Source: a virus. From it: 64,000 nt of DNA. The DNA is taken from the IMG/VR virus record IMGVR_UViG_3300045988_176782, positions 32,001 to 96,000 of that record. One strand, 5' to 3'. Shown piece after piece: positions 694 to 63,969 of this stretch. Within the stretch, counting starts at the first letter, position 1; each line of letters starts with the position of its first letter. The notes beneath the pieces are model-generated. The model did not search any database and was not told the DNA's origin. It saw nothing but the letters and a program-made list of their open reading frames with translations. The translations under genes were made by a program, and so were the position numbers.

Positions 694-694
694 T

Positions 695-45369: not shown

Positions 45370-45398
45370 TTGCATTATTCTGCCGTTTATGATAATAT
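45370..45398 (+). promoter_or_regulatory. first early promoter (extended -10)
   Basis: TTGCAT 45370-75, 17-nt spacer, TGaTAATAT with -10 at 45393-98. A ~175-nt structured leader precedes ATG 45580. Confidence 0.65.
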
Positions 45399-45579
45399 AT
45401 AACCGTGCTCAAAAGAAAGCACAAGCCGGGAACGGAAACTAACGGGAACGGCTTGCAATTTGAAAACTAAATAGCCGGAACCCTTGTATGTTGAGCGAGT
45501 GCCTAGAAGTAGGTGAAACACTTGCGAGGAAAACAGACAAGGCAAGCGGAAACATAAAAAAAGAAAGAAGGTTTTCACA

Positions 45580-46245
45580 ATGGCAAAAATGGGAAAAAAG
45601 CAAACAGCAGAAAAAATCAATCAGTACGCGGCACTATCGCATGATAAGCTGCAAAGCGGCAGCAAAGACACGGCAATTTTGCCCAAATGGGTTGAGACTG
45701 TCAATCGCTGTGCATGTAATGGCGAGCGGCTCGCCGTCAATGACGTAAAAGCTCGTAAAGCGGATAAAACTGATATTATCATGATCATCAATGGAAAGCG
45801 CTGCAAAGTTGAGGTAAAATGCAGCGCTGGAGCTGTTTTTTATGCGAAAAAAGACGGCTTCGGAAATGCGCTGGACTTGCCGGAAACACTGGATAATTTT
45901 AATGAATCGGATATTTTGCCTGACGCTGATTTTGTTATCTACACGCCGGACACGTTTTCAGAATGGCTTGAAAACCCTGCACAGGTTATAAAAAGCTGTT
46001 TTGTAATGACGCGCCAAGATTTTATTGGATTGTTACTTGCCACAACGAAAGGCAAAAACTACGGTTTGAAAATTGACAAGGCGCGCGGACAAGTCACAAT
46101 GTGCAACATGGTGGATAAAAAGCGGAATAAAGAAACGGGCGAAATCAAGTACTACACCAGTCGGCTGGATAGAGCATGGGATTATATCGAATCCCACAAT
46201 TTCCCCACCGTGGAAAGCTGGCTCAAGGAATTGGGAAGGCTATAA
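45580..46245 (+). CDS. early protein with PD-(D/E)XK nuclease-like motif (221 aa)
   Basis: RBS GAAAGAAGG. ...KTDIIMIINGKRCKVEVKCSAGA fits D...(E)xK of restriction-endonuclease-like folds. The function is tentative. Confidence 0.6.
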   Translation: MAKMGKKQTAEKINQYAALSHDKLQSGSKDTAILPKWVETVNRCACNGERLAVNDVKARKADKTDIIMIINGKRCKVEVKCSAGAVFYAKKDGFGNALDLPETLDNFNESDILPDADFVIYTPDTFSEWLENPAQVIKSCFVMTRQDFIGLLLATTKGKNYGLKIDKARGQVTMCNMVDKKRNKETGEIKYYTSRLDRAWDYIESHNFPTVESWLKELGRL

Positions 46246-46290
46246 AAGCCTTCCCCTTCTTCCCACATTAAAAGAAAAGAGGTTAATAAA

Positions 46291-46464
46291 ATGAAGCTGG
46301 CTATTATCACCACTTGTCCTATTGGTAAAAAGATTCGCAACCGGCCGGGCTGGTATTTGGTGCGAATTGATGAAGTTGGCGCCGCATGTGCCTACGCTGA
46401 AATGTTAGCAGAAAAGCTAGACAAGTTGCCTGGTAGTTGGCTGGTTGATACGGTCAAGGCGTAA
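46291..46464 (+). CDS. small early protein (57 aa)
   Basis: ATG 46291 with stop TAA 46462-64 in a hairpin loop (GGTCAAGGC GTAA GCCTTGACC). Below the ORF-track size cutoff. Confidence 0.5.
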   Translation: MKLAIITTCPIGKKIRNRPGWYLVRIDEVGAACAYAEMLAEKLDKLPGSWLVDTVKA

Positions 46465-46497
46465 GCCTTGACCGACTTTATAGAAAGGTGGTTTACA

Positions 46498-46656
46498 ATG
46501 GTACTTCTAAAATGGTATGTAATGGGCTTGCTCAGACGATTGATAGGAACAGGAACGGCGCTCGCACTTGCTCAATGGGCAATCAGAAAGCTACGGAAAC
46601 ACCGGGAAGAAATAAAGGCGCTCATATTGAAAAAGCTAAATAAAGGGAAGGCGTAA
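46498..46656 (+). CDS. small membrane protein (52 aa)
   Basis: ATG 46498 follows AAAGGTGG. One hydrophobic helix, then a basic tail. Stop in a hairpin loop. Confidence 0.5.
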   Translation: MVLLKWYVMGLLRRLIGTGTALALAQWAIRKLRKHREEIKALILKKLNKGKA

Positions 46657-46692
46657 AGCCTTCCCTCCAATTCTGAAAGAGAGGTTAATAAA

Positions 46693-46920
46693 ATGAAAAA
46701 TTCAAACTACTATTCTAGGAAAATTCTTCATCAAGAAATCAAGTATTTGCATGGGTTACTTGAGCAACTTGAGCTTAAAAACAACCTACTTCATAAAGTC
46801 GCCGTCAAACATGGCTATACAACCATTATTGATATAAGCATAAATGCGAACAACCTAAATTGCAACTATTATCAAGGGCGATTGACGGGCATCAAGTTGG
46901 CATTAAAACTAATGCAATAA
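46693..46920 (+). CDS. hypothetical early protein (75 aa)
   Basis: RBS AGAGAGG. Last gene of the first early operon. Confidence 0.55.
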   Translation: MKNSNYYSRKILHQEIKYLHGLLEQLELKNNLLHKVAVKHGYTTIIDISINANNLNCNYYQGRLTGIKLALKLMQ

Positions 46921-46925
46921 AAGAA

Positions 46926-46951
46926 GAAGGGCGAAGGCCCTTTCTTTTTTT
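46926..46951 (+). terminator. rho-independent terminator of the first early operon
   Basis: AAGGGC GAAG GCCCTT followed by TTCTTTTTTT. Confidence 0.7.
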
Positions 46952-46961
46952 AGCATATAGG

Positions 46962-47092
46962 CGAACATATGTTCGGCGAATGTATGTTCGTATAGGAATA
47001 TATGAACAGTCATTCATATGAACAACCATTCATATATAAAGAATGAATATTCATACATGTATATACAATGTATATTTTGGCCATATTCATAC
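46962..47092. repeat. cluster of TTCATA/TATGAA boxes and palindromes
   Basis: CGAACATATGTTCG (46962-75, perfect palindrome) and CGAATGTATGTTCG (46977-90). TATGAACA at 47001 and 47017. ATTCATAT at 47012 and 47028. TGAATATTCA at 47043-52. ATTCATA at 47084. They share the GTTCATA core of the 45308 iterons. Confidence 0.7.
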
Positions 47093-47113
47093 CAGAAAAG
47101 ACAAAGATTTTTT

Positions 47114-47132
47114 CCTTATGTTAAACATAAGG
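47114..47132 (+). repeat. early-cassette palindrome copy 1
   Basis: CCTTATGTTAAACATAAGG flanked by T-run and A-run. Followed by TTGCGC-17-TGcTATAAT (47142-47170) and gene 47203. Confidence 0.9.
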
Positions 47133-47473: not shown

Positions 47474-47557
47474 AAAAAAGACTTTACAAAATCTCAAAAC
47501 TATAATATAATATAATCAACCCGAAAGGGCATAATTTAGAAAGAAGGTTAAACTATA

Positions 47558-47839
47558 ATGATGAACGCCGCCGCCGCTATGCGCAAGATAACCGAAACTG
47601 CTCGTTTGGATTTAGGCACGCAAGTCATAGACCATTGGATTGAGACAGTGGTTATTCCCGAAATGAAAGAACTGGCCGAACTCGGACTTTCCAATTATGT
47701 AGTTAATAATTGTCCCACTTTTCGCGATACAGAAATCAATAAGCAACTTTGCCAATATACTGGAAAAATTCTCAATGAAAACGGATACGACTACAGCACC
47801 AACAAAGAAAAAACCAAAATTGCAATCATCTATTGGTAA
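47558..47839 (+). CDS. hypothetical early protein (93 aa)
   Basis: Cassette gene with RBS GAAAGAAGG. The stop lies in the arm of a hairpin. Confidence 0.6.
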   Translation: MMNAAAAMRKITETARLDLGTQVIDHWIETVVIPEMKELAELGLSNYVVNNCPTFRDTEINKQLCQYTGKILNENGYDYSTNKEKTKIAIIYW

Positions 47840-47875
47840 GGCGCGAGCCTTACCATTTTATTTCATTTTCTTTTT

Positions 47876-47894
47876 CCTTATGTTAAACATAAAG
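47876..47894 (+). repeat. early-cassette palindrome copy 3
   Basis: CCTTATGTTAAACATAAAG. Followed by TTGCAA-17-TGtTATCAT, 5' hairpin GTTCC..GGAAC (47940-52) and gene 47985. Confidence 0.9.
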
Positions 47895-47984
47895 AAAAAA
47901 CCTATTGCAATTCTCCCAAAACTATGTTATCATATAATCGTTCCAAGGGAACACACCAATTACATTCTGAAAGGGGTTTATACT

Positions 47985-48176
47985 ATGTTTAGCGCTTACT
48001 ATGCTCCCGCCACCGTTTCCAAAGGGTATTTTGTTGATTCTGTTCTGCGCTCCACTTCCCGCCGTCTTTTGAAATACTTGGGCTGCGTCAATATTCAAAT
48101 TTCAAAAGTGGAAGATAATCGTTTTTTATCTTTCCTTTACTGCTCCGAACTATCCCGAAACCTTGAGCAAAATTGA
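47985..48176 (+). CDS. hypothetical early protein (63 aa)
   Basis: ATG 47985 follows GAAAGGGG. The ORF-track start at 47775 runs back through the previous gene and the promoter. Confidence 0.55.
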   Translation: MFSAYYAPATVSKGYFVDSVLRSTSRRLLKYLGCVNIQISKVEDNRFLSFLYCSELSRNLEQN

Positions 48177-48227
48177 ATTGGTTTTGGCCGCTTATGTCTA
48201 AGCGGCCACCTATTTCATTTTCTTTTT

Positions 48228-48246
48228 CCTTATGTTAGACATAAAG
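48228..48246 (+). repeat. early-cassette palindrome copy 4
   Basis: CCTTATGTTAGACATAAAG. Followed by TTGCGC-17-TGtTATACT, a 5' hairpin and gene 48332. Confidence 0.9.
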
Positions 48247-48331
48247 AAAAACCCCTTGCGCAAAACCCAAAACTATGTTATACTTGTATCGTTCCAAAGG
48301 GGAACAGAATTTATTGAAAGGTGGTCATACC

Positions 48332-48640
48332 ATGATTAACATTCGCACGATTCGCAAGCTCTCTAATAACGACGGTCTTACTCTCAAAAAAGGCAAGAAA
48401 ATTGCCTACAAAACCGGTTGGCAAGTAGCCGACCATGGTGTAGAATGCAAAACGCCGGAAGCTGCTATCAAAGCTGTGCGCGGGCTGGGCGGCGATTGTG
48501 GTATTTGGTACAGTGATGGAATTTACTATATTGACCACAGCTTCCGTGTAGATACCAAAAAGAAGGCGCTGGAAATTGGGCGGCGGCACAATCAGATTTC
48601 CGTTCTCGGTTGGCGTAAAATGAACTTGGCGTATTGCTAA
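48332..48640 (+). CDS. hypothetical early protein (102 aa)
   Basis: ATG 48332 follows GAAAGGTGG, in frame with ORF-track 48275. Stop in the hairpin GGCGTATT/AATACGCC. Confidence 0.6.
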   Translation: MINIRTIRKLSNNDGLTLKKGKKIAYKTGWQVADHGVECKTPEAAIKAVRGLGGDCGIWYSDGIYYIDHSFRVDTKKKALEIGRRHNQISVLGWRKMNLAYC

Positions 48641-48658
48641 TACGCCATCCCCTATTTT

Positions 48659-48677
48659 CCTTATGTTAAACATAAAG
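48659..48677 (+). repeat. early-cassette palindrome copy 5
   Basis: CCTTATGTTAAACATAAAG. Followed by TTGACA ... TATAAT and gene 48748. Confidence 0.9.
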
Positions 48678-48747
48678 AAAATAATCTTGACAACACTGTC
48701 CTATTTTAGTATAATACAATTACCAAATAACGAAAGGGGTTTTCACC

Positions 48748-48909
48748 ATGACGAATTACTACTACATCCACAACGAACACGGCTATCTTGTTACCTATGA
48801 CGAGATGATTGAAATTTGCCGCAACGAATATGATTGCGATGACCCTACTAATTCTCTAAGCTGGAAGGAATATTTCACCAAAACACGATATGTTGTGCCT
48901 TGCGAATAA
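48748..48909 (+). CDS. small early protein (53 aa)
   Basis: ATG follows GAAAGGGG. Stop TAA in the loop of CCTTGC/GCAAGG. Below the ORF-track cutoff. Confidence 0.5.
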   Translation: MTNYYYIHNEHGYLVTYDEMIEICRNEYDCDDPTNSLSWKEYFTKTRYVVPCE

Positions 48910-48924
48910 GCAAGGTCATATTTT

Positions 48925-48943
48925 CCTTATGTTTAACATAAAG
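48925..48943 (+). repeat. early-cassette palindrome copy 6
   Basis: CCTTATGTTTAACATAAAG. Followed by TTGCAC-17-TGtTATTAT, hairpin GTTCCAAAGGGAAC and gene 49027. Confidence 0.9.
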
Positions 48944-49026
48944 AAAAAGGTCTTGCACTTTCCGCGCCATTATGTTATTATGTAGGTGTTCCAAAGGGAA
49001 CGGAATAATGAAAGGTGGTTGTGATC

Positions 49027-49374
49027 ATGTTTGAATCTCGTGAAAATCTTCTAGATGAAATCATTTCGCAGGCCATTTCTGATGAAGTTTTCTGCCACAA
49101 CGTTCTCAAGCCCACCATTGAAGATTATGGCGATACAGCTGATGAAGCTGAATGGAAAACTACCGCGCAGGTCGCGGTTGGCGGCTATGTAAAGGATAAT
49201 TTTTCCGTGGAGCTGAGTCAAGCGTGGAAAATCGCGCAAAACCTTTTCACCAAGGAAGATATTGAGTATATGGCCGATGCCTTTATGAACTACTATGAAG
49301 AAGAAATTGAGGAAGCGCGAGCCGAATCCATTGAAAGGCATAAAGCAAAAATGAAAGAACTTTTTGGGGAGTAA
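49027..49374 (+). CDS. hypothetical acidic early protein (115 aa)
   Basis: ATG 49027 follows GAAAGGTGG, in frame with ORF-track 49015. Confidence 0.6.
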   Translation: MFESRENLLDEIISQAISDEVFCHNVLKPTIEDYGDTADEAEWKTTAQVAVGGYVKDNFSVELSQAWKIAQNLFTKEDIEYMADAFMNYYEEEIEEARAESIERHKAKMKELFGE

Positions 49375-49398
49375 AGTCCCCAATTTCATTTTTATTTT

Positions 49399-49417
49399 CT
49401 TTATGTTAAACATAAAG
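49399..49417 (+). repeat. early-cassette palindrome copy 7
   Basis: CTTTATGTTAAACATAAAG. Followed by TTGCAA-17-TATACT and gene 49503. Confidence 0.9.
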
Positions 49418-49502
49418 AAAAGAAGATTGCAATTTTCCCTTTAATATAGTATACTTATATCGTCCAAAAGGACATACCAATTTTAGAAAGAAGGTTTTTA
49501 CT

Positions 49503-49811
49503 ATGACAAAGGTTTCGGAACTCGTCTTTTCCAATCACTGTTTGCAGGAACGTCTTTACCGCATCAATCTAATTGAGGAAAAAATTGGTTATGGGCAGAT
49601 TGTAAAAGAATCCTATTGGCGCGGAAGTTATCATTTTCTAACTGACACTGGCGTGGCGTTTGTGGTAGATAATGATAAGCATTATATCATTACTCTTTAT
49701 TTGGTAGATGAAGGACAAGCAAATCGTTTGTACGGCGGAAAAATTCCTAAAAGTTTGCAAAAGAAAATCAGTAAAAATATTTCAATGGGATATGTAAAAT
49801 TGAGGGATTAA
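49503..49811 (+). CDS. hypothetical early protein (102 aa)
   Basis: RBS GAAAGAAGG. Stop in the loop of GAGGGAT TAAA ATCCCTC. Confidence 0.6.
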   Translation: MTKVSELVFSNHCLQERLYRINLIEEKIGYGQIVKESYWRGSYHFLTDTGVAFVVDNDKHYIITLYLVDEGQANRLYGGKIPKSLQKKISKNISMGYVKLRD

Positions 49812-49828
49812 AATCCCTCTCTGTTTTT

Positions 49829-49847
49829 CTTTATGTTAAACATAAAG
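49829..49847 (+). repeat. early-cassette palindrome copy 8
   Basis: CTTTATGTTAAACATAAAG. Followed by TTGACA-17-TATAAT and gene 49936. Confidence 0.9.
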
Positions 49848-49935
49848 AAAATCCCTCTTGACAAATTACGCCACTTCCTTTATAATTAAGACGTTCCCAG
49901 AAGGGAGCAACCAAAAACGAAAGGTGGTTTTCACT

Positions 49936-50271
49936 ATGATGACTTCTTCTACCTTCTACTTTGACCGTGCCCGCAATGGTTACGTATTCCGCCGTATGAA
50001 CCGCGCAGAATGGTACGAGACTTCTCATCTACTCCGCCGCTTCCACCTGACCGAAGGAATGGTGTTGGGGAGCTGGTACGAGGAACAGTTCTTCATGTTC
50101 TACAGTGGCTATGAGGGCTATGGCGTAGAAATCTCACCGTTGGACTCTGGCAAGACGAGCTACATCATGAGCTGCCGCCGTCTTTACCAGCTGGCCGAGA
50201 GCGAAGAAGAGCGGCGAACCCAACTGGAAAATGCACGCGAATGGTATAACAAATATATTAAGGCTCATTGA
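49936..50271 (+). CDS. hypothetical early protein (111 aa)
   Basis: ATG 49936 follows GAAAGGTGG, in frame with ORF-track 49858. Confidence 0.6.
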   Translation: MMTSSTFYFDRARNGYVFRRMNRAEWYETSHLLRRFHLTEGMVLGSWYEEQFFMFYSGYEGYGVEISPLDSGKTSYIMSCRRLYQLAESEEERRTQLENAREWYNKYIKAH

Positions 50272-50290
50272 GCCTTAATTTTATTTTCTT

Positions 50291-50309
50291 CCTTATGTTA
50301 AACATAAAG
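50291..50309 (+). repeat. early-cassette palindrome copy 9
   Basis: CCTTATGTTAAACATAAAG. Followed by TTGCAT-17-TGaTACTAT and gene 50395. Confidence 0.9.
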
Positions 50310-50394
50310 AAAATGGTATTGCATTTTCTTCCCCGATATGATACTATATAGGTGTTCCAAGGGGAACGAAATAAAGAAAAGGACGGTGCAAACT

Positions 50395-50616
50395 ATGTAT
50401 ACTAAAATTGATAAACGACAGGCGCGCAAACTCTGGAATGAGGGCAAAAATTTTACTATGGTATCTTGCAATCTGCGGCCAGAGTTTGGAATCAATGTAA
50501 ATTCTGCGAGCTGGAAGCAACTTAAGGACTTTGATAAGCTCATCAATGAGTTTAGCTATTATAACTGCGGAGACTCTGCGCGTGGCCGCTACCCGGCATT
50601 TTATGTGGAGCTGTAA
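50395..50616 (+). CDS. hypothetical early protein (73 aa)
   Basis: ATG 50395 follows AAAAGGA, in frame with ORF-track 50338. Stop in the loop of GTGGAGC/GCTCCAC. Confidence 0.55.
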   Translation: MYTKIDKRQARKLWNEGKNFTMVSCNLRPEFGINVNSASWKQLKDFDKLINEFSYYNCGDSARGRYPAFYVEL

Positions 50617-50631
50617 AAGCTCCACTATATT

Positions 50632-50650
50632 CTTTATGTTAAACATAAGG
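50632..50650 (+). repeat. early-cassette palindrome copy 10
   Basis: CTTTATGTTAAACATAAGG. Followed by TTGACA-17-TGaTATTAT and gene 50726. Confidence 0.9.
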
Positions 50651-50725
50651 AAGCTGGCATTGACACAAACAAAAACTTTTGATATTATATAGATGTTCTA
50701 AGGAACAAGAAAGGAAGTAAAAGGT

Positions 50726-51118
50726 ATGACGATTGGTGCTTGGATTTTGGTTATTATCTTGGGTATTATTGGAATTGGTTTTGCTATATTTTATTTTCTT
50801 GACGATGAAAAAACTCATGGACTGGTGGCTATACTAATTACTATTATTGTAATTGGTGGTCTAATCCTTGGTTTGTCTTGGTTTTATAATAATACTGGTT
50901 CTGGCCTCCGTGCAATGAAAGACCAGCAGAGCAATCTTAACAACGGTATCAACCGCGACATTAAAGTTGTTGAAAGCAATGGTTTTGTTTCCTACGAATT
51001 TAGCGGCAAGGCTGATTTGGAAACGCACGACGATTATATTGTATTTGAAAGTGAAGGTAAGCGCACTATTATTTACAAGAGTTATACTAGCACGATTGTA
51101 ATTACGGAAATTGATTAA
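50726..51118 (+). CDS. early membrane protein, two TM helices (130 aa)
   Basis: RBS AAAGGAAG. The N-terminal ~60 aa form two hydrophobic helices. Confidence 0.6.
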   Translation: MTIGAWILVIILGIIGIGFAIFYFLDDEKTHGLVAILITIIVIGGLILGLSWFYNNTGSGLRAMKDQQSNLNNGINRDIKVVESNGFVSYEFSGKADLETHDDYIVFESEGKRTIIYKSYTSTIVITEID

Positions 51119-51144
51119 AGGGAGACTTCTCCCTTCCTTAAATT

Positions 51145-51163
51145 CTTTATGTTAAACATAAAG
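51145..51163 (+). repeat. early-cassette palindrome copy 11
   Basis: CTTTATGTTAAACATAAAG. Followed by TTGACA-17-TGtTATAAT and gene 51227. Confidence 0.9.
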
Positions 51164-51226
51164 AAAAAATAATTGACACAAAAATAATTTTCTGTTATAA
51201 TCTTTTTACGAAAGGGGTTGAAAGAT

Positions 51227-51418
51227 ATGGATAATTCAAAGTACCCTATGATTTTTGGTCAAGGTGAGCGATTGGGATACTATGCCTATGTGTTGGACTG
51301 GAATAGTTGTTGCGTCAAGTTGCGTATTCCTGTTGGTATGTTTACATTTTTCTATGATGAATGGTATAGCTGGGATGAAGCCATGGAGCTGTATAATTTT
51401 GAAGGAGTTGAGCTGTAA
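51227..51418 (+). CDS. hypothetical early protein (63 aa)
   Basis: ATG 51227 follows GAAAGGGG, in frame with ORF-track 51218. Confidence 0.55.
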   Translation: MDNSKYPMIFGQGERLGYYAYVLDWNSCCVKLRIPVGMFTFFYDEWYSWDEAMELYNFEGVEL

Positions 51419-51603
51419 TGACAAATTTTGAGAGAGAAGAACAGGCAATTTTGACAGAAGCTGCAAGCACAAAAGCTAATATTTTCCGTATGATTAAAGA
51501 CCAGCTGCTAACAGAAGAAGAAGGCTACTTATGGCTCAATGACAAGCTGCTGATACTCCAAGAACGTTGGTTCCAGCTCCATCGCAAGTTGATGGAAGGT
51601 TAA
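51418..51603 (+). CDS. hypothetical early protein (61 aa)
   Basis: TAATG overlap with the upstream gene. Stop in the loop of GGAAGGT TAA ACCTTCC. Confidence 0.55.
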   Translation: MTNFEREEQAILTEAASTKANIFRMIKDQLLTEEEGYLWLNDKLLILQERWFQLHRKLMEG

Positions 51604-51619
51604 ACCTTCCACTCAAATT

Positions 51620-51638
51620 CCTTATGTTAAACATAAAG
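51620..51638 (+). repeat. early-cassette palindrome copy 12
   Basis: CCTTATGTTAAACATAAAG. Followed by TTGTAT-17-TGtTATTAT and gene 51708. Confidence 0.9.
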
Positions 51639-51707
51639 AAACAAACCTTGTATTTTTTCGCAAACTATGTTATTATCTAATTGTTCCAAGAGGAACAGAA
51701 AGGAAGT

Positions 51708-52127
51708 ATGAATATGAATCAGATGGACGGAAATTTCTCTCATCAGGTTTGGCAGAGCGCAGTGCAATTCCAGAAGGAAACCATTGGCAAGAACAATAAC
51801 TTGTATGAGTTCCTTCAGTGGGTTAGCGAGAAAGCTAACAACAAAGACACCTATCGGTGGGCTGATGCCGTCAATAACTATGCCGCAGGCCGCTACACCG
51901 TGGAAACCTTCGTGAAGGGCCGCAATGTGGTTGTGTATGTGGGCGATGAGGTTGATAATGTGTTCTGCCGTGGTTCTGCTCATTGCAACAAGGACGACCA
52001 CTTTGATTCTAATATTGGCCGCGCCATTGCGCTGTATCGTGCGCTTTCCAGTCTGGAAGATGGCAAAGACGACAGCGGTATCTACAATCCCAAGCGAACC
52101 GACCTTGAGCCGCCGTTTGACATCTAA
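51708..52127 (+). CDS. early protein with C-terminal C..D.FD.NIGRAIA..RAL motif (139 aa)
   Basis: ATG 51708 follows GAAAGGAAG. ...GSAHCNKDDHFDSNIGRAIALYRAL is shared with gene 52459. Confidence 0.6.
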   Translation: MNMNQMDGNFSHQVWQSAVQFQKETIGKNNNLYEFLQWVSEKANNKDTYRWADAVNNYAAGRYTVETFVKGRNVVVYVGDEVDNVFCRGSAHCNKDDHFDSNIGRAIALYRALSSLEDGKDDSGIYNPKRTDLEPPFDI

Positions 52128-52160
52128 TGGAAATGGGGATTTTCCCTATTTCATTTAATT

Positions 52161-52179
52161 CCTTATGTTAAACATACAG
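52161..52179 (+). repeat. early-cassette palindrome copy 13
   Basis: CCTTATGTTAAACATACAG. Followed by TTGACA-17-TGaTATTAT and gene 52256. Confidence 0.9.
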
Positions 52180-52255
52180 AAAACCATATTGACAATTTTC
52201 CCCCGAAATGATATTATATCACTGTTCCAATAGGGAACGAGGAAGGAGAAACACC

Positions 52256-52441: not shown

Positions 52442-52458
52442 GAAAGGAAGCTGGGACT

Positions 52459-56635: not shown

Positions 56636-56677
56636 AAATATGTTCCAAGGGTGAGGAACAAAAATAAAATCCCGCTT

Positions 56678-57035: not shown

Positions 57036-57111
57036 CGGTCATTAACTCAGTTGGTAGAGTATCGCACTTTTAATGCGAGAGTCATGCGTTCAAGTCGCAT
57101 ATGACCGACCA
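57036..57111 (+). tRNA. tRNA-Lys(UUU), CCA encoded
   Basis: Acceptor CGGTCAT/ATGACCG, D arm ACTC-AGTTGGTA-GAGT, anticodon stem TCGCA/TGCGA with loop CUUUUAA, T arm ATGCG-TTCAAGT-CGCAT. Confidence 0.9.
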
Positions 57112-57114
57112 TTT

Positions 57115-57190
57115 CGGAATAAGGTGATGTGGTTCGTTGCAACTGGCTTATATCCAGCGATTCGGGGTTCGATTCCTCGTATTCCGACCA
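57115..57190 (+). tRNA. tRNA-Ile(UAU)-like, CCA encoded
   Basis: Acceptor CGGAATA/TATTCCG, anticodon stem (A)CTGG/CCAG(C) with loop CUUAUAU, T arm CGGGG-TTCGATT-CCTCG. The D stem is weak (G-U pairs). Confidence 0.75.
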
Positions 57191-57196
57191 ATTTTT

Positions 57197-57215
57197 CCTT
57201 ATGTTTAACATACGG
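57197..57215 (+). repeat. early-cassette palindrome copy 19
   Basis: CCTTATGTTTAACATACGG, 6 nt after the last tRNA. Followed by TTGACT-17-TGtTATACT and gene 57292. Confidence 0.9.
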
Positions 57216-57291
57216 AACAATCCTTTGACTTCCTCCCCATCTTATGTTATACTTTAGTTGTTCCAAAGAGAGCAGAAAGGAAAGAAAAGAT

Positions 57292-57732
57292 ATGAAAAAA
57301 ATTCTCGCGGTTCTCCTTACGGTAATTCTCCTATTCGGTTGCACTTCGGCTTTTGCCGCTTCTGACCCTGACTTTGAAATTCTTACTGTCAAAACCGTTT
57401 CTGATGCCCAAGAGTGCTATACTGCATTCAACGATTACGGATATAATGCAGAAATGTACCTGACCGCTTTCGGCGGCGCGCTTCTTGACATAGATGCCAT
57501 TAAATATTTTGATATTTGGCTTATCGGTTTTGAAGATTCAGGGCTTAAAAAGTATGATGTTGTATATGGTTGGTCAGAGTCTGTTAGTAAATTTGTTGTA
57601 GCCACTAACGATGTTATTATGCTTTTCCCTGATTGTTATGATAAAGATGATTATACTACATATCAACTCTTTCTCGGCGCGGTTCTGAATGAAGTAAATG
57701 TGACTTATACTGAAATGAAAACGGATGTTTGA
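57292..57732 (+). CDS. early lipoprotein (146 aa)
   Basis: MKKILAVLLTVILLFGCTS is a signal peptide with an L-F-G-C lipobox. ATG 57292 is in frame with ORF-track 57244. Confidence 0.65.
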   Translation: MKKILAVLLTVILLFGCTSAFAASDPDFEILTVKTVSDAQECYTAFNDYGYNAEMYLTAFGGALLDIDAIKYFDIWLIGFEDSGLKKYDVVYGWSESVSKFVVATNDVIMLFPDCYDKDDYTTYQLFLGAVLNEVNVTYTEMKTDV

Positions 57733-57757
57733 AACATCCGTTTTCTTTTTTTTAATT

Positions 57758-57776
57758 CTTTATGTTTAACATACGG
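57758..57776 (+). repeat. early-cassette palindrome copy 20
   Basis: CTTTATGTTTAACATACGG. Followed by TTGACT-16-TATAAT (57786-57813). A second promoter, TTGACA-18-TGtTATACT (57882-57911), follows before gene 57941. Confidence 0.9.
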
Positions 57777-57940
57777 AAAATAAATTTGACTTTCAGGAAA
57801 AATTGAGTATAATAATAATTGTTCCTGATGAGGGGCAAGGATAACCGGCAGACCGCAACCGAAAAGATTTTCAAAAAAGTCTTGACAAAGCGTCCGCAAA
57901 TGTGTTATACTCTAACCGTCCCCAAGAGGGAGAAATAAAG

Positions 57941-58492
57941 ATGCGGTTAAACCGCAAGAAAGAGGTATGTATGACTACTAACGAAATCATTTCCAAGATT
58001 CTGTCCGACTATGAAGGTTCTGCACTGGTTCGCCCCGACAAGGCCACTTTTATCGCTGTCCCCACCGAAGAAGGTACTTACATCAAGATTGCCGTTTCCA
58101 AGCTCGCTTCTAAGGACGTGGAGCGCAAGGACGGCAAGGTAATCCCTGCTTTCAACTTTGAAACCGCTGTTGAAGGTTACAAGACTTTCGTCGCAGAACA
58201 GGAAGCCAAGGCCGAAGCTCGTGCCAATGCCCCCAAGAAGGAGCGAGTATCCAAGGCTGACCCCGAAAAGGTTAAGATGCGGGCAGAGCGTCAGGCTAAG
58301 TTGGCAGCTTATTTGGAGACTATCGCAGGAATGACTTTCACTTCTACCGACATTGCCAACACTTGTACCGACATTTATCCCGATGGTAATGTGCTAAATG
58401 TAGGCGCGGATTTGGCAACGATTGCCAAGACCGATGACCGTCTTGTGATGGAAAAGATTGAAGGCAAGAAGCACTGGACTTTCAACAAGTAA
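57941..58492 (+). CDS. early protein, family with 54636 and 62059 (183 aa; alternative start 57971)
   Basis: ATG 57941 follows GAGGGAG, or ATG 57971 follows AAAGAGG. Lys/Ala/Glu-rich linker. Confidence 0.55.
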   Translation: MRLNRKKEVCMTTNEIISKILSDYEGSALVRPDKATFIAVPTEEGTYIKIAVSKLASKDVERKDGKVIPAFNFETAVEGYKTFVAEQEAKAEARANAPKKERVSKADPEKVKMRAERQAKLAAYLETIAGMTFTSTDIANTCTDIYPDGNVLNVGADLATIAKTDDRLVMEKIEGKKHWTFNK

Positions 58493-58541
58493 GATTAAAG
58501 GGAAGGACAAAAAGTCCTTCCTTTTTTTTATTAGATTTTTT

Positions 58542-58560
58542 CCTTATGTTAAACATACAG
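58542..58560 (+). repeat. early-cassette palindrome copy 21
   Basis: CCTTATGTTAAACATACAG. Followed by TTGACT-17-TATACT and gene 58637. Confidence 0.9.
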
Positions 58561-58636
58561 AAAAAATATTTGACTTTTCTTTTCTTTTCCATTATACTAA
58601 TAGTGTCCTAAAGAGGACAAGAAAGGAAGTTTTAAT

Positions 58637-59050
58637 ATGTTGCATTATTATCGGGTTCTCTCTACGACTTATAACAATGGAGTTACTGTTGGTAAAAGAT
58701 ATGGCTCTGGTATTATAGACGAAAGTGAAGTCAAAGAAGAAACTATTTCCATTACTTGGGAAAACCTTGAAGAAGTTTATTATGACTATGGCTTAAAACT
58801 CCCCTTTAATATTTGGAACTTCAAGCGCGGTCGTGTTATTAGTTTCTTTGAAGGTGGCCTCACTGACAAGAATCGCCGCGATATTAAAGAATGGAAAACT
58901 CCTGAACTTAATATGAAACTTGTTATCACTTATGAAGTTATGCCTTATTCTCTTAATGATATTCTTAACTATTGGGACAGCGAAAAAGCAATCCAATATT
59001 TGCGTGAAAGAAATTTGTCTTGCCCTATTGACATCTTGAAAAAGTCGTGA
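58637..59050 (+). CDS. hypothetical early protein (137 aa)
   Basis: RBS GAAAGGAAG. Its 3' end carries TTGACA...TGaTATAAT for the next gene. Confidence 0.6.
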   Translation: MLHYYRVLSTTYNNGVTVGKRYGSGIIDESEVKEETISITWENLEEVYYDYGLKLPFNIWNFKRGRVISFFEGGLTDKNRRDIKEWKTPELNMKLVITYEVMPYSLNDILNYWDSEKAIQYLRERNLSCPIDILKKS

Positions 59051-59088
59051 TATAATCAAGGAGAACTTGAAAGAAAGGAAGTTTTGAT

Positions 59089-59556
59089 ATGAATGCAAAT
59101 TTTACCCTAATCTTTGATATGGATGGAACAATCGTATCTTTGTATGATGTTCCCGACTGGCTTAAAAAAATTCGCAATGAAGATACTTCCCCTTACCTTG
59201 ACGCCGCCCCAATGTGGGATATGGCAGAACTTTCCACCATTTTGAACAAATTGTTGGAAATTGGTGTAGAAATTAAAATTGTAAGTTGGTGCGCAAAACA
59301 CGCAACGAAGACTTATGATGATGAAGTCCGCAAGGCAAAACGTGAATGGTTGAAGAAGTTTGACTTTCCTTGTTCTTCCTGTCGCATTACACCTTATGGT
59401 TATCCCAAAGAATACTTGAGAAACAAGAACCGTATCAATATTCTAATTGACGATAACAAAGAAGTTAGGGAAAATTTCCAGCGGTTTGATGGTTGCGAAA
59501 CGATAGACCCAACAAAGATTGACATTGTAGAGTGGTTGAAGGGTTTGATGGAGTAA
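59089..59556 (+). CDS. HAD-superfamily phosphatase, 5'(3')-deoxyribonucleotidase-like (155 aa)
   Basis: LIFDMDGTIV is HAD motif I (DxDGT). ILIDDN is motif IV. The size fits the small NT5C-like phage enzymes. Confidence 0.6.
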   Translation: MNANFTLIFDMDGTIVSLYDVPDWLKKIRNEDTSPYLDAAPMWDMAELSTILNKLLEIGVEIKIVSWCAKHATKTYDDEVRKAKREWLKKFDFPCSSCRITPYGYPKEYLRNKNRINILIDDNKEVRENFQRFDGCETIDPTKIDIVEWLKGLME

Positions 59557-59573
59557 TCCATCAAACCATTTTT

Positions 59574-59592
59574 CTTTATGTTAAACATACAG
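59574..59592 (+). repeat. early-cassette palindrome copy 22
   Basis: CTTTATGTTAAACATACAG. Followed by TTTACT-16-TGcTATACT and gene 59671. Confidence 0.9.
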
Positions 59593-59670
59593 AAAACACA
59601 CTTTACTTTTTCCTAATTTATGCTATACTATACTTGTTCCTAAGGGGAACAGAAAGAGAGGAAGAAAGAC

Positions 59671-60075
59671 ATGGAAAACACCACTTATCTGATTCGGTTC
59701 CTTATCTTGAATGACGAGAACGAGGTTCTCAAGAACTTCATTCTGACTGAACGTAAATACAATACCCGCGAAGAAGCCGCCGAAGCCGCACAGACAGTGT
59801 GCTGTGTGCTAATGAACCATTGCGGATGGAATGTATTCTATCGTATTGTTAATCCCGTTGCTATTTGTACAAGTGGCTTTCACGAGATGACCGCAGACGG
59901 TAGCATCGTTAGTGATGATGAATTACACGAAGAAGAAGAAAACGAGGATGAGGACGAAGAAGAATACGAAGGTGAAGAAGAAAATGATTCCTACAACGAG
60001 CTTACGGACGAAGAAATAAGAGCCATTCTCCGGTATGCACCCAACTTTATTAGAAAGAAATATGAGGACGAGTAA
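59671..60075 (+). CDS. early protein with strongly acidic tract (134 aa)
   Basis: HEEEENEDEDEEEYEGEEEND tract. Standard cassette RBS. Confidence 0.6.
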   Translation: MENTTYLIRFLILNDENEVLKNFILTERKYNTREEAAEAAQTVCCVLMNHCGWNVFYRIVNPVAICTSGFHEMTADGSIVSDDELHEEEENEDEDEEEYEGEEENDSYNELTDEEIRAILRYAPNFIRKKYEDE

Positions 60076-60093
60076 TCGTCCTTTTCTTGTTTT

Positions 60094-60112
60094 CTTTATG
60101 TTAAACATACAG
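60094..60112 (+). repeat. early-cassette palindrome copy 23
   Basis: CTTTATGTTAAACATACAG. Followed by TTGACT-16-TGaTATAAT and gene 60190. Confidence 0.9.
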
Positions 60113-60189
60113 AAAATTCCATTGACTTCCTCCCTAAATATGATATAATAAATTTGTCCTTGAGGGGCAGAAGAAAGAAAGGAAGTTAA

Positions 60190-60792
60190 ATGCATGATTT
60201 TCAAGACTTACGAACCACCACTCTGACCGACCGCGCTTCTATTGGTGTTGCTACTGTAAAGTTTAATGCTGTTTGCCGTGCCTGCGGAAAGAACAAGCCA
60301 AACAAGAATGATTATATTGATTACTGTTTTAATAAATTGGGAGCAATGGAAAAATGCAAACTCAAACATGACTGGCTTCGTGATGAAGATGACCTTGACC
60401 GCGCCGCTTGGGAAGCACAGTGCCAACAGGAATGGTATAACATTCTTGATACCATTCGTTCCAATGATTCTTCCCCTATCTTCGCAGTTTATATCGCTAT
60501 TCTTCCTTCTGGCGTGAAGTGCGGCGAAACTAAGAACTTGCGTCAGCGCTATTCTTCCTTGAAAGCAAGCAACGACATTCTCCACATGTACTACTTGCCT
60601 GTAGAAAACAAGGAACAAAGCACCGCCGCAGAAGATGCCCTTCACTATATTTTTGACCACGCTAAAGGTATGCGGCGAGAGAAGAACAAAAAAGACTACT
60701 ATTCTTGCGAAGAAGATTATGCCCGCAAATTTATTGAGCGAAATAAGCGAGAAATTTATGATGCGATTATGGCAGAAATTGAGGGAGACTGA
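60190..60792 (+). CDS. T5orf172/GIY-YIG-like domain protein (200 aa)
   Basis: FAVYIAILPSGVKCGETKNLRQRYSSL fits the T5orf172-type GIY-YIG core. Confidence 0.55.
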   Translation: MHDFQDLRTTTLTDRASIGVATVKFNAVCRACGKNKPNKNDYIDYCFNKLGAMEKCKLKHDWLRDEDDLDRAAWEAQCQQEWYNILDTIRSNDSSPIFAVYIAILPSGVKCGETKNLRQRYSSLKASNDILHMYYLPVENKEQSTAAEDALHYIFDHAKGMRREKNKKDYYSCEEDYARKFIERNKREIYDAIMAEIEGD

Positions 60793-60810
60793 TTCTCCCT
60801 TTTATTTTTT

Positions 60811-60829
60811 CCTTATGTTTAACATAAAG
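60811..60829 (+). repeat. early-cassette palindrome copy 24
   Basis: CCTTATGTTTAACATAAAG. Followed by TTGACT-17-TGtTATACT and gene 60906. Confidence 0.9.
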
Positions 60830-60905
60830 AAAATCTCTCTTGACTTTTCGTGTCTTTCCTGTTATACTATCAGTGTTCTAAAGAGAACAGAAAGGCGGTA
60901 ACTAC

Positions 60906-61907
60906 ATGGCCAAACAGAAATTACTCTTAACCTTTGATACAGAGACTTGCACTATCTCTGTACCTGATTCTTGGAATCTGACTGCCAACGAGAAGAAAAA
61001 AATCTGTATTACCCGTCCGCTTATTTATGATATTGGCTGGACAATTTCTTCTCGTTCTGCTGGTATTATTGAAAAGAAAAACTATCTCATTGCCGAAACA
61101 TTCTCCGTTCCCTCCGTTTTCAATACTGCTTACTATAAAGAAAAACGCCCCATTTATCTTGATATGATTAACAACGGTGAGTTGACTGTTCGTTGTTGGC
61201 GCGAAGTAATGGAAATTTTTCTCGCAGACTGCGAACAGGCAGATTTAATCTGCGCTTTCAATGAACAATTTGACCTCCGTGCAATTAACTTTACCGAGCT
61301 TTATATCAACAAACTTTATAGTCCTAACTATCAAAGTTGGTATGAAAATCAGGTTGCGCTCTGTTGGAAAATCGCCCATCAACCCTACAAAAAGAAAAAT
61401 GACAAAGACTTTGACCCCTTGTATTTTACCTTCCGAAACAAACAGTATAAGGTGATGGATATTTGGGGCTTAGCTTGCGAAAACATTATCAATACCCCTA
61501 CATATAAACGAGCTTGTCTTGAACATTCTCTTATTTCTCCGTCTGGAATGTATTTTAGCACTAATACCGAAAATGTTAGACGCTTCATCTATAAAGAATA
61601 CGGCTTTATTGAAGAACATACAGCACTTTCTGACGCAGAAATTGAAACAGAAATCCTTCTTAAAGCCCTCAAGCGTGGCAAGAAGGTTGAAGGAATTGAG
61701 TTTTTTCCCTTCCGAAAACTTGGTTATGTTTCTGATTTTATTGTAGAAGATAGCCGCATTACTCCCGCTATGGCACAAAATGCACTTGATATTCTGAATG
61801 CCTATATTGACCAGCATAGCGAACAACAAACACCGTATTTGTCGCAAGTTATCAACCATACGGCGCGGATAGAAAAAAGACGTGATTCTCTTTTGTGGGA
61901 CGAATAA
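60906..61907 (+). CDS. DEDDh 3'-5' exonuclease (DnaQ-like fold), 333 aa
   Basis: Exo I LTFDTET, Exo II AFNEQFDL, Exo III HTALSDAEIE (H-x4-D). Confidence 0.6.
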   Translation: MAKQKLLLTFDTETCTISVPDSWNLTANEKKKICITRPLIYDIGWTISSRSAGIIEKKNYLIAETFSVPSVFNTAYYKEKRPIYLDMINNGELTVRCWREVMEIFLADCEQADLICAFNEQFDLRAINFTELYINKLYSPNYQSWYENQVALCWKIAHQPYKKKNDKDFDPLYFTFRNKQYKVMDIWGLACENIINTPTYKRACLEHSLISPSGMYFSTNTENVRRFIYKEYGFIEEHTALSDAEIETEILLKALKRGKKVEGIEFFPFRKLGYVSDFIVEDSRITPAMAQNALDILNAYIDQHSEQQTPYLSQVINHTARIEKRRDSLLWDE

Positions 61908-61934
61908 TGTCCCACCTTTTTATAAAAATTTCTT

Positions 61935-61953
61935 CCTTATGTTAAACATACAG
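61935..61953 (+). repeat. early-cassette palindrome copy 25
   Basis: CCTTATGTTAAACATACAG. Followed by TTGACA-17-TGtTATACT and gene 62059. Confidence 0.9.
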
Positions 61954-62058
61954 AAAAAGATTATTGACAAAAAATAAAAATCTTGTTATACTATATATGT
62001 TCCTTGAGAGAGGAAAAAAGAGGAAGGACACCTCACAAACCAGAGAGGAAGAAAACAT

Positions 62059-62595: not shown

Positions 62596-62639
62596 GGTAA
62601 GAGGGGACGAAAGTCCCCTTTTATTTTAAGAGTAGGTTT

Positions 62640-62658
62640 CCTTATGTTAAACATACAG
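62640..62658 (+). repeat. early-cassette palindrome copy 26
   Basis: CCTTATGTTAAACATACAG. Followed by TTTACA-17-TGgTATTAT and the 62732 operon. Confidence 0.9.
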
Positions 62659-62731
62659 AAACAGACCTTTACATTTCTGCGGCGATATGGTATTATATCA
62701 ATGTTCCAAGGAACAGAAAGGAAGGTAGAAT

Positions 62732-62983
62732 ATGAAGATTAAACACGCAGACACATTAGGCATTCATTGCTTTAAGAATCTTAAAGCAGGAGATACTTTT
62801 TACTATAACGACAAACTTTATATAAAAGTGCATTCTCTCTCTGTTACTTTTGCCTATAAGAAAGTCATTATCGCGAATGCTCTAAGTTTAGAGGTTTTCG
62901 CTTTAGCTTATATTAAAGATGATGAAAAAGTCGCTTGTGTTGAAAGTGAGCTTACTGTTAGTAATTATAGGAGGATGAACTAA
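62732..62983 (+). CDS. small early protein, paralogue 1 of 4 (83 aa)
   Basis: ...LKAGDTFYYNDKLYIKV... motif, shared by the next three genes. Confidence 0.6.
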   Translation: MKIKHADTLGIHCFKNLKAGDTFYYNDKLYIKVHSLSVTFAYKKVIIANALSLEVFALAYIKDDEKVACVESELTVSNYRRMN

Positions 62984-62984
62984 G

Positions 62985-63218
62985 ATGGAAATCATTTACG
63001 CCTATCAAACTCAATCATTTTCTAAAATTATCGCGGGAGATATTTTCAAGCACGAAGATGAATACTATATGAAGCTCGCGCAAAAATCGGAACCTGTTAT
63101 TGTTTTTAATAACAACTTTGTCCCTAATGCCGTTGGAATGAGAGACGGCGAACTAATTTATTTTCCTGCTGATACAAAAGTGATGTTTGTTCCTGCAAAA
63201 CTTCAAGTAGAAAGGTGA
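62985..63218 (+). CDS. small early protein, paralogue 2 of 4 (77 aa)
   Basis: ...IIAGDIFKHEDEYYMKLA... Confidence 0.6.
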   Translation: MEIIYAYQTQSFSKIIAGDIFKHEDEYYMKLAQKSEPVIVFNNNFVPNAVGMRDGELIYFPADTKVMFVPAKLQVER

Positions 63219-63223
63219 AATGT

Positions 63224-63466
63224 ATGCAAATTACTACTGTTGATAAAGAAAAAGAAATTTCTCTCCATTGTATTGACTATGGTGCAGTATTCAAATATTA
63301 TAATGAATATTACATAAAACTGAAATATGCAGATACCAGTAATTTACCCCGATACGAAAGCGGAGCTTACCCCACTGTTGTTTGTTTAGAAGATGGAAGT
63401 TTAACTTGTTTTGCAGAAACGACTTTAGTGGAAGTCGTAGATGCAGAGTTAAGAGTAAAGGAGTGA
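63224..63466 (+). CDS. small early protein, paralogue 3 of 4 (80 aa)
   Basis: ATG 63224 follows AAAGGTGA (ORF-track GTG 63215 is in frame). ...DYGAVFKYYNEYYIKLK... Confidence 0.55.
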   Translation: MQITTVDKEKEISLHCIDYGAVFKYYNEYYIKLKYADTSNLPRYESGAYPTVVCLEDGSLTCFAETTLVEVVDAELRVKE

Positions 63467-63471
63467 AAGAT

Positions 63472-63708
63472 ATGAAGGTTCTTTCCGAAGATTTTTGTAA
63501 GAGGACTTTTCAGGAACTTCCTGAAGGTGAAATTTTTCGCTATGGCAACAACTTTTTTATTAAACTTGTCCAATTAGAAAAAGTCATTATGCACGATGAA
63601 GAAGGTTATCCTATCAATGCCGTTAATATTGGAAATGGCGTTCCTGCTTATTTCCAAGAAGGTGTTATTATTACTTACTTTGACGACGAAGTTATGGCAA
63701 TGAGGTGA
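63472..63708 (+). CDS. small early protein, paralogue 4 of 4 (78 aa)
   Basis: ATG 63472 follows AAAGGAG, in frame with ORF-track 63382. ...PEGEIFRYGNNFFIKLV... Confidence 0.6.
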   Translation: MKVLSEDFCKRTFQELPEGEIFRYGNNFFIKLVQLEKVIMHDEEGYPINAVNIGNGVPAYFQEGVIITYFDDEVMAMR

Positions 63709-63911
63709 AGTACATGCACATTTTAGTTTGTATCTTTCTTGCCTTTTACTTTACTGAATGTATTTCTTCCGCTTTTGAAATTGCAGGAGAAGATTGTCCA
63801 ACACTTTCACTTACGGATACTTTGCTGTTTCTATTGTGTTGTATTGTACCGATGAAGTGCATAGCCAAGGCATACAAGAAACTTGATAATTGGGTAAGAG
63901 GACTTGAGTAA
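63705..63911 (+). CDS. small membrane protein (68 aa)
   Basis: Two hydrophobic helices. GTGA/ATG-type overlap with the upstream gene. Stop in the loop of GGACTTG/CAAGTCC. Confidence 0.55.
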   Translation: MKYMHILVCIFLAFYFTECISSAFEIAGEDCPTLSLTDTLLFLLCCIVPMKCIAKAYKKLDNWVRGLE

Positions 63912-63919
63912 GCAAGTCC

Positions 63920-63938
63920 TTTTTGTTTTCCTTATGTT
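63920..63938 (+). repeat. early-cassette palindrome copy 27 (no promoter follows)
   Basis: CCTTATGTTTAACATAAAG. Followed by the convergent terminator instead of a -35. Confidence 0.9.
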
Positions 63939-63969
63939 TAACATAAAGAAGAAAAAGGAGGAAGATTTA
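63936..63969 (-). terminator. rho-independent terminator of a - strand gene entering from the right
   Basis: GGAGGAAGA / TCTTCCTCC stem (63947-55 / 63961-69), followed on the - strand by TTTTTCTTCTTT. Confidence 0.7.

Follow-up and report, generated by a model that had tools for sequence, protein, structure and literature searches.

Does a phage that reads TAG as glutamine in only part of its genes keep the codon out of its early genes, so that recoding itself separates early from late expression? The question is raised by virus record IMGVR_UViG_3300045988_176782, of which we analysed positions 32,001 to 96,000 (64,000 nt, hereafter the window). A preliminary description of this DNA had noticed a block of about 42 genes at 45,370-63,940 that is compatible with the standard code and lies next to genes carrying in-frame TAG, and had proposed a recoding-gated early-to-late switch. 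A comparison of 5,000 nt showed 100% identity between the window and contig BRIT16-1_SAMN02334027_METAG-scaffold_49 of European Nucleotide Archive entry ERZ28573184 (167,214 bp); by coordinates, the window corresponds to positions 40,331-104,330 of that contig. The source of these 64 kb is a virulent-type tailed phage from human gut metagenomes, which reads genetic code 15 (TAG = Gln) in only part of its genes. Human-gut assemblies frequently contain close relatives (165-175 kb), and an INPHARED nucleotide search with the early and late blocks as queries returned no relative; the lineage is an undescribed, widespread 167-kb gut phage. The window is AT-rich (GC 30-42%) and falls into three parts, A on the plus strand, B on the minus strand and C again on the plus strand (Table 1). 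As detailed below, we consider it likely that code 15 serves part of the genes in such a way that a TAG-free early set is followed by a late set that depends on suppression.

Open reading frames (ORFs) were collected from the plus strand of 45,370-63,940 with all three stop codons as terminators. This gave 42 ORFs comprising 4,981 codons between 45,580 and 63,911, with no in-frame TAG, and most of them are preceded by a strong GAAAGGAGG-like ribosome-binding site. In agreement with the preliminary description, these genes are intact under the standard code and none of them ends in TAG, 31 being terminated by TAA and 11 by TGA. Because a three-stop definition forbids in-frame TAG by construction, the block was recounted with ORFs bounded by TAA or TGA only. 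The resulting 47 ORFs (5,694 codons) contained 10 in-frame TAG, all of them located either 5′ of a start codon with a ribosome-binding site or in pseudo-ORFs over tRNAs or terminator-promoter spacers. The 11 plus-strand ORFs of at least 30 amino acids (aa) that end in TAG were rejected as genes, since all overlap longer ORFs, tRNAs or terminator/promoter spacers. Counted by frame (0/+1/+2), TAG occurs 0/52/35 times in the early genes and 105/262/138 times in the late genes; the DNA of the early genes is thus not devoid of TAG. With the sigma-like gene included, the 105 in-frame TAG of the late minus-strand ORFs are spread over 10,570 codons and make up 19% of the Gln-type codons. At that share about 32 TAG would be expected in the early genes (P of finding none ~5e-16; Fisher's exact test for early versus late, p = 1.5e-11). 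The absence of TAG from the 42 terminators has a P of ~0.003, compared with a TAG share of 13% among the off-frame stop triplets of the block.

The depletion extends to relatives. No TAG was found in early orthologues from six related contigs (140 pairs, 17,625 aligned residues, 49-100% identity), and the only stop encountered in these pairs, at aligned codon 4, was a TGA. All relatives sampled retain the block in conserved, syntenic form, and their TAG-free run reaches ~3-5 kb beyond the position of the window end; thus, the span first described is indeed TAG-free, but 63,940 is where the window cuts the block and not where it ends. Its composition differs from that of the late block: GC is 40% versus 33-37%, GC at third codon positions (GC3) 0.43 versus 0.26, the CAG share of Gln-type codons 41% versus 7%, and the TTA share of Leu codons 11% versus 48%. 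This codon-usage contrast fits early genes that match the tRNA pool of the host and late genes that rely on phage tRNAs. The differences in GC, GC3 and CAG share are also what a distinct history would leave, in which the early block is of other origin or under another mutational regime, for example a mosaic from standard-code phages that did not accumulate CAG-to-TAG changes. Such a history is, however, hard to reconcile with a block that is syntenic in all sampled relatives, where 49 of 451 aligned Gln positions became another residue or a gap and none became TAG, and neither does it account for the lack of TAG terminators (0/42) next to the presence of off-frame TAG. A conserved block without Gln-to-TAG changes, without TAG stops and with TAG off frame argues for selection and not for recent import, and we regard a separate origin as very unlikely.

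The late minus-strand block has the opposite character and needs TAG read-through (Table 1). Under the standard code, ORFs of 100 aa or longer account for 55.8 kb; once TAG is read as sense they account for 82.9 kb, and the longest one extends from 435 to 3,324 codons. Reading TGA or TAA as sense produced extra ORFs that were short only. The portal, the tape measure (both identified by PHROG matches) and the tail genes carry 5-37 in-frame TAG each; the ORFs taken to be terminase have 1-4. The meaning of the codon was read from TAG-bearing ORFs aligned codon by codon with related contigs. In a first comparison 69 TAG sites were conserved and 19 of the 26 changes were between TAG and CAA or CAG. 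In a second comparison, covering 55 ORFs, the alternative codons at TAG sites were CAA (15), CAG (5), TGG (2) and CTT, GAT and GAA (one each), that is, Gln in 20 of 25 cases. The exchange between CAA and TAG was the commonest one although it needs two substitutions, which fits synonymous drift within glutamine. Pyrrolysine, suggested by an ARAGORN 'tRNA-Pyl' label, and Leu, Ser or Tyr, suggested by a long variable arm, were discarded as meanings of TAG, as codons for Leu, Ser, Tyr or Lys were involved in no more than one exchange in each of the two comparisons. By the evidence of codon exchange, TAG is Gln, as in genetic code 15.

The two blocks also differ in their expression signals. Requiring at least 11 of 12 positions to match TTGACA-N16-18-TATAAT, we found 17 near-consensus sigma-70-type promoters on the plus strand of the early block (47483..61992), compared with 0.27 expected, a maximum of 2 per shuffle in 200 dinucleotide shuffles and no site on the opposite strand. 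They are mainly TTGACA-N17-TATAAT or TATACT, most with a TG extended -10 element, and are interleaved with terminator-like hairpins (52 versus 16.4 expected). In the 39-kb late block only two minus-strand sites reached the same threshold (0.73 expected), one at 45,128-45,100 and one starting at 9290; between 25.4 and 45.3 kb promoter-like sites were at the level of chance (76 versus 64.8) and there was no strong minus-strand terminator. Given the promoter array and the terminators of part C, and the contrast with part B, part C would consist of many short transcription units for the host polymerase, whereas part B looks like one or few long ones. Across relatives, most of the genes directly 3′ of consensus promoters have no TAG. 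The label 'early', with timing inferred from promoter consensus alone, thus appears to find independent support in the sigma-70 promoter array.

A suppressor tRNA was not found in the window, either by ARAGORN with relaxed settings and introns allowed or by Rfam at E <= 10 at the tRNA cluster; the relaxed-threshold matches were dismissed as noise, only tRNA-Leu(CAA), tRNA-Lys(UUU) and tRNA-Ile(UAU) being real. About 100 kb of the genome was then followed via related contigs until the circle closed. A tRNA(CUA) is present in four of the four related contigs (numbered with the prefix L) that cover one locus ~100 kb away in the genome, between a 99-aa gene following a lysis-type cassette and a ROOL RNA (RF03087, 310 bits), and each copy lies behind a TTGACA-N17-TATAAT promoter that matches at 12 of 12 positions. 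Two alleles occupy this same position in close relatives. Allele a (L083 10,486-10,571, and L082) is 86 nt long and non-canonical, with a 6-bp anticodon stem, a very small D-loop, a long variable arm and no T-psi-C motif. Allele b (L077 20024-20370, and L084) looks canonical, but a group I intron of 253 nt (Rfam 45 bits, E = 4e-10) splits its anticodon loop between anticodon positions 35 and 36. A single junction meets the group I rule (U before the 5′ splice site, G at the intron end) and yields the loop CUCUAAA, and after splicing in silico ARAGORN with default settings calls a tRNA(CUA). Among the ten papers listed by a limited full-text literature search, none dealt with an intron-interrupted phage suppressor tRNA, and no release-factor-like gene was seen in any locus fetched.

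These tRNA genes bear on the possibility that the host already suppresses UAG, in which case the whole genome would be in code 15 from the start and the TAG-free block would have no regulatory meaning. A window without a suppressor tRNA is what such a host would allow, and a host search by scanning genome contigs with the capsid-like protein gave no match. A uniform code, however, predicts uniform use of TAG, whereas the early, replication and endonuclease genes exclude it, and the close relatives carry a tRNA(CUA) of their own. No Bacillota lineage is known to read TAG as Gln. Constitutive suppression by the host is, in our judgement, extremely improbable. The host is instead probably a standard-code member of the Bacillota, as deduced from the exclusion of TAG from early genes together with Bacillota-type expression signals. 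Strong Shine-Dalgarno sites and TG-extended -10 elements fit such a host, as do the portal homologues (25-30% identity) in the large siphoviruses Lactococcus 949, Enterococcus EF1 and VRE9, and Bacillus PBC2 and Thrax; further homologues in this range of identity occur in SPbeta-like phages and in the recoded gut phage phAss-1.

Absence of TAG is not confined to early genes, nor does its use follow the strand, and in these two respects the preliminary description, which had split the genome by strand and timing, needs correction. On the plus strand TAG occurs in the GIY-YIG and RuvC-like genes of the window and, in relatives, in leucine-rich repeat (LRR) and tail-like genes directly past the early block, in a lysis-type cassette (PG_binding_1, SpoIID; 2-5 TAG per gene) and in a 764-aa gene with 8-13 TAG. 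A TAG-free protein with an Mtd-like N-terminal domain adjoins the LRR and tail-like genes. Conversely, the replication genes 5′ of the window (DNA polymerase III alpha subunit, NrdD, RecJ) are as free of TAG as the early block. So are four contiguous genes between portal and tail, in which 43 CAA/CAG codons stand against no TAG (P = 5e-5 at the late-gene TAG share) and whose role in the capsid is deduced from position, since their PHROG matches are families of unknown function. Four intron homing endonuclease ORFs likewise have no TAG in 973 codons (P = 5e-4), and a fifth endonuclease-like ORF has one. The TAG-free putative capsid module and the endonucleases indicate that expression level and mobility, too, shape the use of TAG; perhaps the capsid module avoids it owing to very high expression.

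Taken further, this would mean that TAG is avoided for translational efficiency, accuracy or expression level and not for timing, the early block being one such class: amber suppression is leaky and slow, so abundant or full-length products would avoid TAG whenever they are expressed. The putative capsid genes, late by position yet TAG-free, speak for this explanation, and so do the TAG-free replication genes. It leaves unexplained, however, why TAG is absent from every one of 42 small genes that have no known function and probably differ in abundance, and why they coincide with the host-type promoter array; and there are 4-5 TAG in each of the terminase and portal genes, whose products are needed at full length. 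As the whole explanation we therefore consider efficiency unlikely.

At the head of the minus-strand block lies a sigma-like gene with exactly five in-frame TAG, at codons 114, 180, 351, 415 and 434 (first bases 44666, 44468, 43955, 43763 and 43706); the ORF that follows starts at 43689, overlapping the stop of this gene. Its only PHROG match is phrog_5767 'sigma factor' (E 1.5e-13), which covers residues 266-421 in the C-terminal third. Searches against Pfam (E <= 0.01), NCBIfam and PDB sequences returned nothing meaningful and recognised no sigma-70 region 2 or region 4 domain, and tblastn against phages did not confirm the identity. Thus, the position of this gene and its five TAG, as first noticed, were borne out, while its identity as a sigma factor is weak, resting on one PHROG match. 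The protein is regulator-like, and we regard it as a candidate late regulator.

These findings suggest a succession of events, built on four observations: the codon distribution, the identity of TAG as Gln by codon exchange, the contrast in promoter class and the tRNA(CUA) of relatives. First, the sigma-70 RNA polymerase of the host would transcribe the many short plus-strand units. Their ORFs, having no TAG as sense codon or terminator, would give the same protein with or without an amber suppressor. A phage tRNA(CUA), as seen in close relatives, would be transcribed in the same host-polymerase class and, once mature and charged, would compete with release factor 1 at UAG. Only then would the TAG-bearing ORFs be completed, namely those for the sigma-like protein, terminase, portal, tape measure and tail, as well as the lysis cassette of relatives; with five TAG in its gene, the sigma-like protein would lag in particular. 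Since every gene ends in TAA or TGA, suppression should cause no read-through damage. TAG density would be tuned gene by gene, and genes needed before suppression would avoid the codon, as do the putative capsid and mobile endonuclease genes. In this succession the timing of expression, the charging of the tRNA and suppression as the rate-limiting step are what we infer.

Several points weigh against this interpretation. The suppressor tRNA is known from close relatives only, its expected locus lying outside the window, and in both of its alleles the variable arm is long, an unusual feature in a tRNA that accepts Gln. The promoter calls are consensus matches only, and promoter class and TAG content are not perfectly linked because some TAG-bearing genes have sigma-70-type promoters: the sigma-like gene, the GIY-YIG gene (preceded by a 12/12 promoter at 731) and the 764-aa gene of relatives. 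The TAG-free putative capsid module shows that factors besides timing shape TAG use, and the host search mentioned above produced no match. All in all, of the recoding-gated switch as first proposed, what stands is a TAG-free block of host-type promoters facing a TAG-dependent structural block, TAG never used as terminator and a first minus-strand gene with five TAG; the division by strand and the equation of TAG-free with early do not.

A stronger version can be drawn from the start of part B. The late block is headed by a host-type promoter and its first ORF is regulator-like with five TAG; the stop of this ORF overlaps the start of probable terminase exon 1; and from 25.4 to 45.3 kb late-block promoters are at chance and no strong minus-strand terminator is present. 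On these grounds the code switch might be the primary timer in this lineage, beyond a safety layer over transcriptional control, which we consider conceivable but doubtful. If it were so, transcription of the late block by host polymerase could begin at the outset and the build-up of tRNA(CUA) would license protein output; in some strains, excision of the group I intron from the anticodon loop would add a delay at the RNA level.

Table 1. Features of the 64,000-nt window (coordinates are positions in the window)
Feature	Coordinates	Strand	Remarks
Part A	1-5,908	+	End of replication / nucleotide-metabolism arc, also recombination genes: NrdG C-terminus, GIY-YIG protein, dUTPase split by intron with LAGLIDADG endonuclease, RuvC-like protein
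GIY-YIG gene	787-1794	+	4 TAG
Intron splitting dUTPase	4327-4570	+	Group I
RuvC-like gene	4802-5530	+	3 TAG
Part B	5,946-45,005	-	Sigma-like gene, intron-separated terminase-like ORFs, portal, head module, tape measure, tail proteins
Late structural block	5946-43689	-	Needs TAG read-through; stops TAA/TGA only
Tape measure	22361-24445 joined to 12058-22029	-	~4,000 aa across intron
Group I introns in late genes (span 22064-43156)	42913-43156, 31805-32104, 28540-28866, 28253-28478, 22064-22359	-	Rfam RF00028; these five above the Rfam gathering score
Homing endonuclease ORFs	40483-41442, 29828-30592, 27670-28155, 25603-26322		0 TAG
Fifth endonuclease-like ORF	39046-40032		1 TAG
Putative head module	33239-36677	-	Four contiguous genes between portal and tail; 0 TAG
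Inferred terminase part	41591-42676	-	4 TAG; PHROG-unannotated
Probable terminase exon 1	43069-43689	-	2 TAG
Sigma-like gene	43692-45005	-	438 aa; head of minus-strand block
Sigma-70-type promoter	45100-45128	-	TTGACA-N17-TAAAAT, 11/12; 95 nt upstream of sigma-like start codon
Direct repeats	45305-45360		~2.5 copies of ATGAACAAACTGTAAACAAACT (minus-strand reading)
Part C	45,580-63,911	+	42 small ORFs and three tRNA genes; runs off window end
tRNA cluster	56678-57190	+	Leu(CAA), Lys(UUU), Ile(UAU); none reads UAG; ARAGORN, Rfam
tRNA-Leu	56678-56765	+	CAA anticodon in some relatives
Spacer between tRNA-Leu and tRNA-Lys	56766-57035	+	270 nt
Deoxyribonucleotidase-like gene	59089-59553	+	5′-3′ deoxyribonucleotidase-like protein
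T5orf172-domain gene	60190-60789	+	T5orf172 domain

The group I intron load is unusually high. Besides the introns listed in Table 1 there are about six weaker matches, and terminase, tape measure and other late genes appear split; the dUTPase, interrupted in the window, is intact in one relative (L006, 257 aa). The early proteins gave almost no family matches (20 proteins searched against PHROGs and Pfam), the two named in Table 1 being the matches obtained. The direct repeats lie where the sigma-like gene and the first early gene diverge, and are possibly an operator or origin-like element.

The 270-nt spacer within the tRNA cluster is, among relatives, more conserved than the tRNAs that flank it, and contains a T-arm-like hairpin (CCGGGTTCAACTCCCGG), an acceptor-like pairing and, possibly, a pseudoknot. 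It matched no Rfam family, the best hit being tmRNA_permuted with 17.7 bits, and we list it as a candidate RNA of a new kind, structured or tRNA-like. Three identities for the spacer were set aside, namely a non-canonical suppressor, a theta (hepatitis delta virus-like) ribozyme and a tmRNA, as it has no CUA-type anticodon loop and its best Rfam score is that low. In other relatives (L004 5021-5106, L013 3959-4044) the adjacent tRNA-Leu is replaced by a quite different tRNA-Leu(TAA), and L003 has a differing tRNA-Lys; tRNA cassettes are exchanged while the spacer RNA stays constant.

At the distant locus of the relatives, full-length ROOL RNA (RF03087, up to 310 bits; L082 10869-11439, L084 11119-11693, L077 20639-21134) has a 12/12 sigma-70-type promoter of its own and lies ~300 nt downstream of the suppressor tRNA gene, with a small abiF-motif match in between. 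A second tRNA cluster of the relatives comprises Trp, Asn, two Met, Ser, Leu, Pro, Leu and Thr, as well as a tRNA with a 49-nt anticodon-loop insertion (Rfam 49-54 bits; L081 4147-4263, L082 17810-17925, L084 18831-18947) that ARAGORN missed. The 419-aa protein with the Mtd_N-like domain beside the LRR proteins (L012 20441-20537, L020 10687-11946) hints at a receptor-binding protein of the diversity-generating-retroelement type. Relatives also encode a 377-aa protein of the adenylosuccinate synthase family (PF00709; L069 19317-20447, L077 10001-11134) near a nucleoside deoxyribosyltransferase and a dCMP deaminase; as it is PurZ-like in size, the phage might make 2-aminoadenine DNA.

Borges et al. 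(10.1101/2021.08.26.457843) have already published the recoding-gated switch as a model, in which early genes are compatible with the standard code, the phage supplies suppressor tRNAs, and structural and lysis modules are recoded; replication genes are spared in several clades and the reassigned codon is lost as a terminator. The lineage described here shares with those recoded gut phages the concentration of in-frame stops in structural and lysis genes, replication machinery that is not recoded, scattered recoded modules, group I introns with endonucleases, the depletion of TAG as a terminator and the proposed model of standard-code early genes followed by a switch; its close relatives, like those phages, carry a suppressor tRNA of their own. 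In size, probable host phylum and module layout it resembles their Agate clade, Firmicutes-infecting phages of ~154 kb. Yet in the Agate lineage that Borges et al. analysed in depth TGA is Trp, whereas here TAG is Gln, and release factor 2, reported for some TAG-recoded Agate phages, was not seen here in the loci fetched. They found an intron endonuclease preferentially recoded, whereas here the four intron-type endonucleases are TAG-free and a free-standing GIY-YIG gene carries TAG. Their paper mentions no sigma-like regulator as a recoded gene.

phAss-1, of the proposed Phassvirus group (PMC10607447), is a distant relative with the same code. It too has a large, siphovirus-like genome from the human gut in which TAG is Gln and occurs in terminase, portal, tape-measure and tail genes; it carries tRNA-Sup(CTA) genes and its predicted host belongs to the Clostridia/Eubacteriales. 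Its portal is ~29% identical to a homologue of the portal of this phage, without a nucleotide match. It differs in having 136 kb, 36 tRNAs and three suppressor genes, and an early block rich in sigma-70 promoters was not described for it. The code-15 crAss-like phages (Yutin et al. 2021, PMC7886860; Peters et al. 2022, PMC9523058) share TAG-to-Gln recoding in late genes and a layout by strand and module, and according to PMC9523058 their code 15 has been confirmed by metaproteomics. They are, however, unrelated podovirus-like phages of Bacteroidota hosts with an RNA polymerase of their own, whereas this phage has Shine-Dalgarno sites and Bacillota-type promoters. Lak megaphages are also TAG-recoded, but they have Prevotella hosts and genomes of ~550 kb, and their replication genes are mostly recoded too, which is not the case here.

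A known code-switch pattern is thus extended to an undescribed lineage, and existing knowledge is not changed by it. Three features may go beyond published descriptions: the promoter array that coincides with the TAG-free block, a first gene that is regulator-like, contains five TAG and follows a host-type promoter, and the two suppressor alleles, one of which contains a group I intron. As a test case for the code-switch model the lineage is unusually clean: a ~20-kb block with no TAG and dense host-type promoters faces a block that depends on suppression, the first TAG-bearing gene of that block is a candidate late regulator, and the suppressor tRNA of the relatives has its own host-type promoter.

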